Source of the DNA: an uncultured delta proteobacterium
Lineage (GTDB): Bacteria > Desulfobacterota > Binatia > UBA9968
Direction of reading: 5' to 3'
Assembly (NCBI GenBank): GCA_963760795.1
Contig: CAVXEP010000011.1
Location: forward strand, 24,349 to 88,348
DNA: 64,000 nucleotides
The notes beneath the pieces were generated by a model that saw nothing but the letters and a program-made list of their open reading frames with translations, was not told the origin of the DNA and did not search any database. The position numbers were made by a program, and so were the translations under genes. Shown here one piece after another: positions 37,806-41,952 of the stretch. Numbering within the stretch: position 1 is the stretch's first letter; the number at the start of each line of letters is the position of its first letter.

Positions 37806-38891
37806 TCACGCCGTGAATGCAGATGTGACCGTTTGATGGCCGCCGTTGTCGCTGAACTCTTCTTCGTAGTAGAGGCCGAGAGCGTTGAGCACGGGGGCGT
37901 CTTGGATCGAGAACAGCACCGCGTCGGCTTTCGCCGAGCTATTGACATGTTCATGCATCGACCAGGGTGGCAGGGCGATGATGTCGCCTTTGCGCCAGGT
38001 GAAGCTTATGCCGTCGATAATCGTCTGGCCTTGACCTTGGACCACATGGTAGACCGCGCTGCCGGTATGGCGGTGCGCTTGGGTATGTTCATTGGGGCGC
38101 AGCAGCTGGATGCGGCAAGCCATGGTCGGCAGCACCGGGCCGCCGGTCTGCGGGTGCCGATAATCCAGTGAAATGCCGTCGAAGGCGCTGCCGATCTGAC
38201 CGCGTAAGGCGTCCAGCGCTTTCCAGGTTTGTTCCCAGGAGTAGAGCAGCAGCGGTGAGGCGTTAGTCTTCTCTTTAATCCAGGTCGGATTGAGTTGGCC
38301 GGTGCCGTACATGGCTTGGGAAGTATGCGCGGGCCGCGATGCCGGCACTTGAGTCTGGCTGTAAAACTGAAAAAACATCGCTTCCAGCGAGGCGATCAAG
38401 GGGATGTCGAGTCCGTCCATCCAAACGATGCGGTCTTTGGTTTCGTTGCCATGGTCGTGCCAGGACCAGCTTGGCGTCAGAATCAAATCGCCCGGCTCCA
38501 TGTAGACGCGCTCGCCGTCGACGGCGGTGTAGGCGCCGCTGCCTTCGACGATGAAGCGGATCGCCGTCGGCGTGTGGCGGTGCGCGCGCGCGACTTCCCC
38601 GGGGAGCAGCACTTGCACCGCGGCGATTAAGTTATTCGTCGTCGCCCAACGGCCGTTGAGTCCAGGATTAAATAGCTGCAAGGCGCGCCGCTCGTCGCCC
38701 ACCGGCACCGCTTGAGTGGATTCGCTGACGAGCGGCTCCAAGGTCGACCAAGGCCAGATATGGGCGACCATTTTAGGCTGCGGCTGTGGCGTCATCTGAC
38801 TGGCGAGCTCCCACAGACCGTACATGTTGTTGGCGTGCATGCGCTGGTGAAAGGCTTCGCGGGCGGCATCGGATGGCTTTTCGGCTTTCAT
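37806..38891 (-). CDS. Gentisate 1,2-dioxygenase family bicupin
   Basis: ERRALQLFNPGL, AHRHTPTAIRF, WHDHGN, WMDGLDIPL and HRHTGS. Confidence 0.9.
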   Translation of the reverse strand: MKAEKPSDAAREAFHQRMHANNMYGLWELASQMTPQPQPKMVAHIWPWSTLEPLVSESTQAVPVGDERRALQLFNPGLNGRWATTNNLIAAVQVLLPGEVARAHRHTPTAIRFIVEGSGAYTAVDGERVYMEPGDLILTPSWSWHDHGNETKDRIVWMDGLDIPLIASLEAMFFQFYSQTQVPASRPAHTSQAMYGTGQLNPTWIKEKTNASPLLLYSWEQTWKALDALRGQIGSAFDGISLDYRHPQTGGPVLPTMACRIQLLRPNEHTQAHRHTGSAVYHVVQGQGQTIIDGISFTWRKGDIIALPPWSMHEHVNSSAKADAVLFSIQDAPVLNALGLYYEEEFSDNGGHQTVTSAFTA

Positions 38892-39095
38892 GATCTTCCC
38901 TCTCGGTGAAATGTTCCGGCTCGGAACCGACTCTGCTCTCGCGCGTGAGTCATCATTATCGAGCTTAAAGAAAACGCTAATACGGTTACCGATGTCGGTC
39001 AAGCGATGGAGCTTGCCCATGATTAGAGCGAAGGCTAGGTTCAGCGCCAATGCCTCAAAGGCAAGCGCATTGGGATCAATTATTCCGGCAGATCG

Positions 39096-39440
39096 TTGGA
39101 CTACATCACCTTCAGGGCAGCACGTCGCGACCCAGAAGAAGATCCTAAAGACGGAAATGAAATCGCTCGGTTGTTACGCGCGCTGCGCTCGGCGAGCCTG
39201 TTTCTTCAGGAACAGCGTGGCTACGCAGTCGGCCTGTTCGAAAAAAACTTGCGCTTCGATAGTCCCTCCGCCGAAAAGTTTAATAGCCGTTGCGCGACCG
39301 ATATAACCCCGAGCTAACCTTGCCCGACGGGATCGAAGATTTCCTTGTGGTGGGGACTTTTGGTTCGAAGGAAAAGGAGAAAGCGGCGGCCAATCTACCA
39401 ACCGTGAGGGAGTGGAGTTTCGCCGAAAGAGCGCAGGGCT
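39096..39440 (+). pseudogene. C-terminal remnant of a NitT/TauT-type substrate-binding protein
   Basis: EIARLLRALRSASLFLQEQR..FEKNLRFD and, after a frameshift, ..VREWSFAERA resemble SBP C-terminal helices. Confidence 0.5.
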
Positions 39441-39800
39441 ATAAATTTTTGCGGTTGGTGCGGTTGTTGGGATTTGTCGAGTTTGTTCTCGCCGCTCCGG
39501 TTGTTCCGCATGACGGCATTGAGCAATATTGTGCACATAATGGAAGTTGTCAGTTTATGATCCTTCGAACCGGCAGTTCAATTCCGTTCACCGACTGCTA
39601 TTCCCTGCGCTCTTTGTGAAGCTATTCGCAGTCAGTTGTTGTAAAAAGCGCAGTTTAGATGCCGAATTTCTCTTGACGAGTAGTTCATTTGCTGTCATTT
39701 ATTATCAGTTATGGCGTTTTATTGAGGTTTTTGACGCTGGTCTACGTCTCAGTGTGATCGTGGCAATTCGACTAGAGATTCTTGCTGCTTTTTGGATTTC

Positions 39801-39816
39801 TGGCACTTTGCTTGCT
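39801..39816 (+). promoter_or_regulatory. Sigma-54 (-24/-12) promoter
   Basis: TGGCAC-TTTGC-TTGCT exactly matches TGGCAC-N5-TTGCW, 72 bp upstream of the bactofilin ATG. Confidence 0.8.
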
Positions 39817-39888
39817 CCAAAATTATCCGTTTGTCGAGAATACTCGCGTTTCCATCCGAAAATAGTTTCCGTGATCAAGGAGGTTTCC

Positions 39889-40434
39889 ATGGCATTGTGG
39901 AATCAAGCTACCCCCGAGGTGAGTTCAGAAAAACCGCAGCCGACACCGCCGGGGCTAACACCCACTCCGACCGCGACCACGACCGCACCGACACCGACCC
40001 CGGCGCCGACGCCGGTGGTGCCGACACCTAAGGAAAGCGCACCAACGGGTCGCCGCGAGTCGGTATTTGGCCCGGGCGTCACTATCGAGGGCAAGATCGA
40101 AGGCGACGCCGACATTCGCATCGGCGGTAAGTTTAAGGGCGATATCCAAATCAAAGGCGATCTGAATCTCGACAAGGGCGCCAAGGTTTCAGCCAAAGTG
40201 CAAGCCGCCAATGTCACCATCGGCGGCGAACTGGAAGGCAACGTGGTCGCCGGCGCCCAAGTGAAATTACTGGAGTCCGGCCAACTCATCGGCGATCTCA
40301 AAGCAGCGGTGCTGACGGTGGTGGCGGGCTCGCGCATGCGCGGTCATGTCGAGTTTGGCTGGAGCGCCAGCGAAGTCGCCAAATTTTCCAACGGCCACGC
40401 CGAGGAGAAAGAAAAAATCGGAGCCGCCGGATGA
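39889..40434 (+). CDS. Bactofilin (polymer-forming cytoskeletal protein) with Pro/Thr-rich N-terminal tail
   Basis: SVFGPGVTIEGKIEG..IRIGGKFKGDI..VTIGGELEGNV..LIGDLKA..GSRMRGHV beta-helix repeats; RBS AAGGAGG before ATG 39889. Confidence 0.92.
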   Translation: MALWNQATPEVSSEKPQPTPPGLTPTPTATTTAPTPTPAPTPVVPTPKESAPTGRRESVFGPGVTIEGKIEGDADIRIGGKFKGDIQIKGDLNLDKGAKVSAKVQAANVTIGGELEGNVVAGAQVKLLESGQLIGDLKAAVLTVVAGSRMRGHVEFGWSASEVAKFSNGHAEEKEKIGAAG

Positions 40435-40766
40435 AAGTCGGGCAGGCGACGGCCGGCGATTCGCGCAGCTGTCCCCACTGCAGAGCGACGATCCTTAAAA
40501 GCGCGGCGACCTGTCCGATGTGTCGCCATAATCTTCGCTTTGTCTCAATCGGCGCCGAGTCGCACGCCAAGCCATCCAGTTGCCCGCTCTGGGTGGAAGG
40601 GACTCTGCAAAATGCCAGCGAAACCGAAACGCTTGAGTATTATCTCCTGATGGAAGTGCGCGACGAGGCCGGCAAGGTGATCTCGCGGCAAAGCGTCGGC
40701 GTCGGCGCGATCCCGCAGGCGGCGAAAAGAATCTTCTCTCTGCGCGTCGAAACAACGCCGGCATAA
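40431..40766 (+). CDS. Hypothetical protein: N-terminal zinc ribbon plus beta-rich (FxLYD-like) domain
   Basis: CPHC-x10-CPMC; ATGA overlap with the bactofilin stop codon. Confidence 0.78.
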   Translation: MKVGQATAGDSRSCPHCRATILKSAATCPMCRHNLRFVSIGAESHAKPSSCPLWVEGTLQNASETETLEYYLLMEVRDEAGKVISRQSVGVGAIPQAAKRIFSLRVETTPA

Positions 40767-40790
40767 GCGCAACTTTTATCCGAGTCGACC

Positions 40791-40842
40791 ATGGGCTCAA
40801 GACGTACGCTGTCAATCGCGTAGCGCCTTGAGCCCATTTTTT
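40791..40842 (+). terminator. Intrinsic terminator after the bactofilin operon
   Basis: ATGGGCTCAAG...CTTGAGCCCAT stem followed by a T run, between convergent genes. Confidence 0.7.
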
Positions 40843-40851
40843 CAGTATCTA

Positions 40852-41952
40852 CTAGCGCAGATTCGCCAGCAGCGGTTTTAGCGCTTCGACTACGCCGTTA
40901 GCGATGCGGTGCATGCCTGCGTCGTTTGGGTGGACGCGATCGGTAACGAGCAGGAATAGCGGTTCGTTGACCATCGCCAAGCCGTCGGCTAGGTGCAATT
41001 GCGTATCGCTGTTCTGCCGCTGGCGGACGACGCGGGTGATGCCTTCGCGGTACAACTCGGGGCGCTCGCCGTTTTGATTGCCGCCGCGATCTAGGTCCGC
41101 CCGGTTCAGGATCGGTGTCACGCAAAGAATCGGCTTGGTCGGCGCGCTGCCTCTGATGGTCGTTAGAAATGCGTCGTACTTGGCCGCGTACTGCGCCGCG
41201 GTTTCCGGTTTCCCGGTCGCGTCCGTTCCGGCAAATGAGTTTGTCCCGAGCATGATCGACAGCACATCCCAATCGTTGCGGCTGGCGATGGTCTGGGCGA
41301 CGATATTGTCGGCCCAGGCGGTGCCGCCGAAGCCGAAGTTGATGCCGACACAGTTCAACTGCTCGGCAACTTGCCAGACATAGGTCTCCCGCGGGCTGGT
41401 AACGCCATGGCCTTGAGTGATGGAGTCGCCGTGGAAAAAAATCCGTGGCCGTTTATCCGGCGCAGCTTGTTCTAACTGCGCGGCGGCGTCGATACCGATG
41501 GCGTGCAAGACAACCTCGGAGTTGCGATAGTAGAAGGGCAGCAGCACTTGGATCTCCGCCGTGCCGGCGAGTTCTCGATCGTTGAAGATGGTTACTTCCT
41601 GCGGTTCGAAGTGAGTGAGCCCGGCCATGCTGGCGACATACTTGCGGTCTCGGTAGAGCGAGAAAAAATTTGGCCGCGAGCGCTCCCAGCCCGAAGCCGG
41701 TGTCGCCGGCGGCGTGTCCGGAGCGTCGACGAAGGTGACGCGAAAAACCAGTTTCTTCGCGTCGGTGCGAAAGCGCACCGACATGCCCGCTGACGACATG
41801 GCACGGCGCGCGGTCTTCTTCGGCCACTGGTCGCGCCAAGCCTTGGTGACGCGCACCGGCTGCAAGCCTTCGCCCCGCGGTTCCCAATCGGCGACATTGA
41901 GCCAATCGAAACGTCGATCGCGCGGTTCGAGCCATTGCATCGCATCGCTCAT
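40852..41952 (-). CDS. SGNH/GDSL hydrolase with N-terminal GxDLY-like accessory domain
   Basis: HGDSITQG, NFGFGG, GTN and DRVHPN catalytic blocks. Confidence 0.88.
   Translation of the reverse strand: MSDAMQWLEPRDRRFDWLNVADWEPRGEGLQPVRVTKAWRDQWPKKTARRAMSSAGMSVRFRTDAKKLVFRVTFVDAPDTPPATPASGWERSRPNFFSLYRDRKYVASMAGLTHFEPQEVTIFNDRELAGTAEIQVLLPFYYRNSEVVLHAIGIDAAAQLEQAAPDKRPRIFFHGDSITQGHGVTSPRETYVWQVAEQLNCVGINFGFGGTAWADNIVAQTIASRNDWDVLSIMLGTNSFAGTDATGKPETAAQYAAKYDAFLTTIRGSAPTKPILCVTPILNRADLDRGGNQNGERPELYREGITRVVRQRQNSDTQLHLADGLAMVNEPLFLLVTDRVHPNDAGMHRIANGVVEALKPLLANLR

Follow-up and report, generated by a model that had tools for sequence, protein, structure and literature searches.

Does a bactofilin gene that overlaps a small zinc-ribbon gene behind a sigma-54-type promoter represent a conserved module, or a chance arrangement in one genome? 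The question is raised by a stretch of 64,000 nucleotides (nt) of contig CAVXEP010000011.1, from an uncultured delta proteobacterium of the Binatia, which is referred to here as the window. On its forward strand, the gene for a bactofilin of 181 amino acids (aa; positions 39889-40434, assigned by Pfam family PF04519 and an AlphaFold2 model) ends in an ATGA stop/start overlap (40431-40434). The second open reading frame (ORF) thus begins inside the stop codon of the first and encodes a 111-aa protein, called the partner below, with a zinc ribbon and a beta domain (40431-40766; translation, alignment and AlphaFold2 model). All genes and signals of this operon lie on the same strand. The adjacency of the bactofilin and its partner is that of a conserved module, not of chance.

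Linkage of the bactofilin and its small partner

A scan of genome contigs with an alignment of 14 partner sequences (A3) as query returned at least 600 matching stretches, 585 of which were confirmed, and the best 80 loci were studied. In 79 of these 80 loci, the next gene upstream is a bactofilin like that of the window and has the same orientation (tblastn with both window proteins). At the 80th (L064), the contig begins 55 nt 5' of the zinc-ribbon gene, so the upstream gene falls off the contig. The earlier note on this DNA, made from the sequence alone, had supposed that similar pairs exist in distant bacteria and proposed a homolog search scored for bactofilin adjacency; that search finds the homologs linked, and the supposition was sound. 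According to their record labels, the loci come from 11 metagenome-assembled genomes of the Binatia/'Deltaproteobacteria' type, 29 Gemmatimonadota, 39 Pseudomonadota and 1 Methylomirabilota. Those of the Pseudomonadota include Pseudoxanthomonas, Xanthomonas translucens, X. maliensis, Lysobacter/Lysobacteraceae, Rudaea and Steroidobacteraceae. The closest locus, L001 (DASPXM010000348.1), carries the label Verrucomicrobiia and groups with the Binatia/'Deltaproteobacteria'-type loci by protein identity, by its MAVWNQ N-terminus and by its sigma-54 promoter. Mis-binning of the contig, or too coarse a label, may explain this.

The spacing of the two genes is also conserved. From the bactofilin stop to the partner start it is -4 (ATGA or GTGA) in 68 of the 79 loci, +2 in two, 16-20 nt in five and 66-113 nt in four, the last group including apparently frameshifted ORFs. 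Partner start codons were picked by their closeness to aligned residue 1, not by overlap. Overlaps of the ATGA type have been discussed together with translational coupling (PMC6728339), and the overlap seen in these sequences is consistent with such coupling.

Nothing else accompanies the pair across lineages. In an all-against-all comparison of ORFs of at least 70 aa, only the two genes and their alternate-frame shadows were common to at least 12 loci (window slice and six loci inspected). Flanking ORFs were common to at most 11 loci, among close relatives, and the flanks differ between lineages. By Pfam, the 29 flanking ORFs of 12 loci have unrelated functions; they include NMT1, luciferase-like, DNA polymerase III alpha, short-chain dehydrogenase, DNA ligase, DnaJ and MnmA proteins. 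Neither among these 29 ORFs nor among the neighbours in the window was an M23 peptidase found, and there was no third conserved gene, in agreement with the proposal that the partner takes the place of a wall hydrolase. In one Gemmatimonadales locus (L016:4490-5317), an extracytoplasmic function sigma factor fused to an anti-sigma zf-HC2 domain is encoded 3' of the pair; it is not conserved in the other loci.

The pairwise distances of bactofilin and partner correlate as well (r=0.84 over 2556 pairs from 72 sources, including the window pair). The list of bactofilins excludes L019, L023, L024, L037, L044, L059 and L068, whose ORFs are ambiguous or apparently frameshifted, and the distance correlation also left out L012 and L064. 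The correlation indicates that the pair is inherited as a unit; it shows no binding.

Partner proteins are numerous beyond these loci. A word-indexed search gave 82 close relatives with 52-99% identity over the aligned part, fragments included, one of them named Candidatus Binatia. With phmmer, 187 relatives at E<=0.001, 70 of them at E<=1e-10, were found among 1.84 billion cluster representatives, and the Xanthomonas translucens member used as query retrieved 2553 clusters (90% identity) at E<=1e-10. A search of a plasmid collection gave no match. The records name these proteins 'hypothetical protein', 'Zinc-ribbon domain-containing protein', 'YbaR (Trm112 family)' (some records of the Joint Genome Institute) or 'glutaredoxin'. 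The last label is found in NCBI records of the X. translucens and X. arboricola orthologues (L075:3983-4348 and relatives; P0234, P0242). Because neither family matched the window protein in Pfam or NCBIfam, 'glutaredoxin' and 'YbaR' look like mislabels prompted by the pairs of CxxC motifs.

Properties of the two proteins and their possible contact

The first protein of the pair is a bactofilin by its domain match and its model. The match to Pfam Bactofilin PF04519 spans residues 59-154 (E=1.7e-20; 73.5 bits, cut-off 27.9) and covers profile positions 2-97 of 98. In the AlphaFold2 model, residues 57-156 (nt 40057-40356) form strands with a block predicted local distance difference test (pLDDT) score of 88-96, and this strand-rich core is presumably the beta-helical bactofilin domain. 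The core ends in AGSRMRGHVEFGW, after which a helix (160-167) and a tail (169-181) are modelled with low confidence. Residues 1-56 are also of low confidence and have no regular structure; they comprise the MALW motif (residues 1-4 of the N-terminal MALWNQ) and a Pro/Thr-rich linker (5-56). A bactofilin that starts with MALW and continues with a Pro/Thr linker of some 50 residues is what had been described, and the Pfam match, the sequence and the model agree with it. In the alignment of the subfamily (A5, 65 sequences: 64 of the 72 usable locus bactofilins plus one), the N-terminus is MA(L/I)W(K/N), with W4 in at least 90% of the sequences, a variable Pro-rich linker follows, and the C-terminal end of the core is conserved as AGSRMRGxVEFGW.

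The second protein is small and has two parts. Its zinc knuckles, in residues 14-31 (nt 40470-40523) of the translation, read C14-P-H-C17, ten residues, C28-P-M-C31. In an alignment of 78 sequences, G9, R12, C14, P15, H16, C17, L22, C28, P29, C31, G81, G92 and R100 are invariant, and R36 is nearly so; alignment A4 took in 67 of the 80 partner proteins of the loci. The AlphaFold2 model, built on a 78-row alignment (mean pLDDT 82, predicted template modelling score 0.46), has two short hairpins around the cysteines (short strands 11-13 and 20-22), a low-confidence linker (38-45) and a C-terminal domain of four long beta-strands (residues 50-108, nt 40578-40754; block pLDDT 90-95). The beta-sandwich-like domain expected at this place is thus modelled as four strands. 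Many relatives carry in addition a Pro/Ala-rich, low-complexity tail of 60-150 residues, encoded 3' of the beta domain (for example P0088, P0095, P0101, P0103, P0111 and P0115; loci L026, L029 and L051). This tail often ends in a short basic stretch, such as ...RL(R/H)IFRKP, which is conserved in three sequences; the window protein has no tail.

The partner resembles no characterized family closely. Its zinc-ribbon matches in Pfam are all below threshold, the best being PF13240 with 17.2 bits against a cut-off of 25. The NCBIfam model FxLYD_dom (NF038353) aligns with residues 55-110 at 17.2 bits (E=0.0036), under the curated cut-off of 23 bits; at E<=0.01 it is matched by 29 of the 78 partner relatives, the best at 2.4e-05. 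Judged from these sequence scores, the resemblance to FxLYD_dom is a remote likeness only. Foldseek returned no match in the PDB at E<=0.001 (best E 0.46, with Ig- and Fn3-like domains of large enzymes among the top rows), and PDB sequences searched by profile yielded nothing beyond weak RING-finger tails (E>=0.011). Matches in the ESM Atlas were unnamed 'zinc ribbon' or 'hypothetical' clusters, one lower-scoring cluster having PF13240 on 29% of its members. Since no family in Pfam or NCBIfam reached its threshold, and neither a related solved structure nor a paper turned up in the searches, the partner deserves the description 'uncharacterised' that it had been given.

In typical proteins that combine a zinc ribbon, a membrane segment and an Ig-like domain, the C-terminal domain is extracytoplasmic. 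Were the C-terminal domain of the partner an extracytoplasmic, FxLYD-like one, the protein would link the bactofilin to the cell envelope. The FxLYD_dom likeness and the Ig- and Fn3-like Foldseek rows point in this direction, but the former stays under its cut-off, the latter are not significant, and neither a hydrophobic segment between ribbon and beta domain nor a signal peptide was seen by eye (no predictor was run). We consider this explanation very improbable.

The charge of the two proteins is complementary. The isoelectric point (pI) of the window partner is 9.3 (basic) in the zinc-ribbon half and 5.3 (acidic) in the beta domain, and across 72 sources (71 loci and the window pair) the partner has a median pI of 8.9 and the bactofilin one of 5.95. 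A basic ribbon with R12 invariant and R36 nearly so would also suit a protein that binds nucleic acids or has a regulatory task, for example as an autoregulator or as a tether to the chromosome, and whose main contact is DNA or RNA and not the polymer. Zinc ribbons commonly bind nucleic acids, as is generally known. Further, bactofilin scaffolds of Myxococcus hold chromosome-segregation proteins via an adaptor (PMC12448750). However, an overlap kept so strictly in different phyla suggests that the two proteins are made in matched amounts, as would be unusual for a regulator. No DNA-binding family was matched by the partner in Pfam or NCBIfam, and conservation is as high in the acidic beta domain as in the ribbon; a role centred on nucleic acids is therefore unlikely.

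The reading that we prefer, and hold to be reasonably probable, is a two-gene cytoskeletal module made from one transcript, in which the small protein is a dedicated cytoplasmic partner of the polymer and which is read by sigma-54 in the lineage of the window. As judged from family knowledge, the bactofilin would polymerize via its beta-helical core and would probably attach to the membrane from the inside by its short hydrophobic MA(L/I)W N-terminus. The small basic partner would be made together with it through the conserved overlap of stop and start. It would then bind the polymer, either as an adaptor whose zinc ribbon or variable tail recruits something else, or to modulate polymer assembly. 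Complex prediction for the full-length bactofilin and the partner, with separate alignments, gave scores of 0.06 and 0.02 (mark 0.32), which count neither way.

Co-translation through the overlap would equally suit an assembly factor, which caps the bactofilin or holds off its polymerization until it is on site and is not a stable component of the polymer. The four-stranded sheet in the model of the partner could conceivably pair with the open end of a beta-helix. Such a role is rather unlikely, in our estimate: the computed data do not separate a capping factor from a stable adaptor, and the bactofilins studied so far polymerize without helpers (PMC12448750).

The preferred reading of a dedicated polymer partner has a bolder version, possible but doubtful, in which bactofilins of a distinct, two-component class have the small protein as an obligate second subunit. 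Made in matched amounts through translational coupling, it would decorate the polymer or co-assemble with it and would offer a zinc-dependent docking surface. Such a class would extend over at least several hundred species in four or more phyla, including cultured Xanthomonadales, and would never have been studied.

Promoter and surroundings of the operon

The operon of the window is preceded by a -24/-12 promoter element of the sigma-54 type, TGGCAC-N5-TTGC (39801-39815), recognized by sequence and by conservation in the clade. It reads TGGCACTTTGCTTGC, and its core lies inside a longer context that reads CTGGCACTTTGCTTGCT on the forward strand. The GG and GC doublets are ten bases apart, and the element ends 73 nt 5' of the bactofilin ATG at 39889. 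A Shine-Dalgarno sequence, AAGGAGG (39877-39883), stands 5 nt 5' of this ATG and is kept in 12 upstream regions. The exact element occurs once in the 64-kb window, where 0.12 matches are expected from shuffled sequences. With one mismatch allowed, there are 5 matches against 4.97 expected; only the exact site stands out, because the one-mismatch count equals chance.

Conservation of the element was examined by scanning 300 nt 5' of each bactofilin start, requiring the GG and GC doublets and a match at no fewer than 8 of the 10 specified bases. In the loci of the window clade (L001-L011), the element is present in 11 of 11, exactly in eight, at 9/10 in two and at 8/10 in one, and ends 73-113 nt before the ATG. 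The background is 0.076 per 300 nt at score 8, with no exact match in 1,148,118 nt (both strands; the rest of the 79 loci and the window slice). In an alignment of 12 upstream regions (A6), only the -24/-12 element, whose columns are invariant, the ribosome-binding site and the start are conserved. That adjacency and promoter match are a coincidence in one genome might have been argued from the shuffles, of which 12 in 100 held at least one exact match per window. Against this stand the adjacency in 79 of 80 loci, the same placement of the promoter throughout the clade and the absence of exact matches from 1.15 Mb of background, and the probability of such a coincidence, already refuted, is practically nil.

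In the lineage of the window, the operon would be read from a sigma-54 promoter; other lineages keep the pair and not the promoter. Given such a promoter, an ATP-dependent activator encoded elsewhere would be needed, and the module would therefore be made on a signal.

Several points weigh against the preferred reading, both in its general form and in the role it gives to sigma-54. Linkage is known for the best 80 of at least 585 stretches, all at least 44% identical to the query, and was scored from the side of the partner, the loci having been gathered by partner and not by bactofilin. Physical contact is something that we infer from linkage, from the conserved overlap and from complementary charge, that is, from sequence. 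Two candidate fusions of the proteins, P0225 (301 aa) and P0233 (286 aa), were rejected as read-through or assembly artefacts; they hold garbled, Arg-rich and apparently frameshifted stretches, are therefore not evidence of a true fusion and could mislead fusion-based inference. Bactofilin peptides known to target the membrane are N-terminal and have two hydrophobic residues and lysines, the hydrophobic pair inserting into the bilayer, and their global consensus is MFSKKKK (PMC12448750). The MA(L/I)W(K/N) motif departs from this consensus: an acidic residue or Gln comes next, and the window clade has N instead of K. It is like the published motif in design yet not identical with it, and membrane binding is for this reason a property that we infer. 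With respect to regulation, the sigma-54 element is not retained in the other 68 of the 79 loci, none of which scores 9 or more and five of which score 8, against about 5.2 expected. Moreover, no 9-mer (one mismatch allowed) is common to at least 8 of the 12 upstream regions, the most widespread being TTTTCCATT in 7 of 12, and no GAFTGA-type or RpoN-box motif was found in any frame of the window or the 80 loci. An activator may be encoded elsewhere, and the missing GAFTGA motif and upstream site therefore do not exclude sigma-54 control.

The promoter is thus real but clade-specific, a lineage addition and not a property of the module. Of the claim that the operon is signal-induced through sigma-54, the part that concerns the window's own clade stands, with conservation in 11 of 11 loci, and the part that would extend it to the other 68 does not, where the check on promoter conservation that the earlier note suggested finds nothing above background.

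Upstream of the -24 element by about 200 nt, about half of the clade regions show by eye a GACAATTTTG-like stretch followed by (G/A)AC(G/A)ATC (A6 columns ~40-75, for example L002, L004, L005, L008 and L010). The window has no clear copy of it, and the k-mer search did not detect it.

The promoter borders on an AT-rich non-coding stretch (39500-39800, from the composition profile), with a GC content of 0.41-0.44 across 39500-39900 against 0.55-0.67 on either side. The earlier note had noticed this region and suggested that activator sites could lie in it; the low GC content is real, but such sites were not found. The region could serve as an enhancer holder or a DNA bend. It forms part of an interval of about 840 nt (39051-39888) that separates the divergent cupin gene from the start of the bactofilin and holds no convincing gene: an ORF of 109 aa at 39290-39619 has no Pfam match, and no ORF of the interval is shared with at least 5 of the 80 loci. 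A scan of 38500-41200 matched no Rfam family.

At its 3' end, the operon is separated from a convergent GDSL gene, which ends at 40852, by a hairpin with a run of six T that resembles an intrinsic terminator (40791-40842; hairpin 40791-40837, T6 40837-40842), identified by its fold energy. A 101-nt fragment folds at -34.7 kcal/mol (z=-4.0), with none of 200 shuffles equally stable. A simple consensus scan did not report this structure, the loop being longer than 8 nt. In a crude scripted test, a hairpin followed by a T-run occurs in 7 of 80 sources (79 loci and the window slice, the window being one of the seven), and a feature this rare is therefore not part of the conserved unit. The neighbours of the pair in the window are a divergent bicupin gene, the convergent GDSL hydrolase, a luciferase-like oxidoreductase and NMT1-type binding proteins. 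The promoter, AAGGAGG, the ATGA overlap, the 111-aa protein with CPHC-x10-CPMC and the terminator, as first described, were all located in the sequence; 'self-contained operon' also proves an apt term, since the pair stands among metabolic genes of unrelated function and is all that related loci have in common.

Comparison with known systems

The findings suggest that the partner is, within the literature searched, a new and so far undescribed kind of bactofilin partner. Few such partners are known, and the choice of clients is poorly understood although the scaffolds are widespread (PMC12448750). No paper was found that couples a bactofilin with a zinc ribbon, in a search that fell short of most subscription journals. 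Among the listed papers that mention 'bactofilin' and 'zinc', no title or abstract points to a zinc-ribbon partner; in PMC10945521 the word concerns an inducible promoter and a column for affinity purification. The combination of 'bactofilin' and 'RpoN' yielded nothing about a sigma-54-driven bactofilin. Two proteomics papers deal with CcmA proteins of Xanthomonas citri and X. oryzae, which may or may not be orthologous to the present bactofilin: the level of a bactofilin annotated as CcmA (XAC1344) increases in planta (PMC5504864), and CcmA was recovered together with the response regulator VemR on purification (PMC9218911).

The pair is of significance in several respects. The partner family is large and consists of small soluble proteins, strictly linked to one subfamily of bactofilins in the best 80 of at least 585 stretches. 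Its members occur in cultured Pseudoxanthomonas and Xanthomonas, and the module is therefore directly testable. Database labels such as 'glutaredoxin' are corrected. Finally, a single cytoskeletal module would be controlled by sigma-54 in one lineage and by other promoters elsewhere.

In overall plan, the partner is similar to proteins with FxLYD (NF038353) and to the zinc-ribbon families PF13240 and PF12773, which likewise have two N-terminal CxxC knuckles and a small, all-beta C-terminal domain. A stretch (M/L)-x-(V/I)-R-(D/N) can be placed by eye where the motif that gives FxLYD its name would lie. In contrast to these families, for which cut-offs are 23-27 bits, the window protein scores 17 bits and lacks a membrane segment. 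A search of full texts for the name FxLYD brought up no paper relevant to the function of these domains.

Among systems with known partners, bactofilin genes adjoin genes of M23 peptidases across a broad range of species (PMC10945521). In the BacA-LmdC system of Hyphomonas, as here, the bactofilin gene stands beside a dedicated partner gene in many species, and LmdC-type partners bind the polymer by a short cytoplasmic region (PMC10945521). The present partner differs in being a soluble zinc-ribbon protein of 111 aa that lacks a membrane segment, an M23 domain and any signature of a wall hydrolase. The BacA-PbpC system of Caulobacter shares with the present pair an N-terminal bactofilin peptide, a bactofilin composed of a core with short tails and, on the preferred reading, a polymer-dependent recruitment of the client (PMC12448750). 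However, PbpC is a bitopic cell-wall synthase encoded elsewhere, whereas the candidate client here is cytoplasmic and would be translationally coupled, and the N-terminal motif is MA(L/I)W(K/N) instead of MFSKKKK. With BacNOP-PadC of Myxococcus, the preferred reading shares a soluble cytoplasmic adaptor that attaches to a bactofilin scaffold and thereby connects other machinery with it (PMC12448750). PadC is ParB-like and binds a long C-terminal tail with a lysine-rich motif, whereas the partner described here is unrelated to it and belongs to a bactofilin with a short tail.

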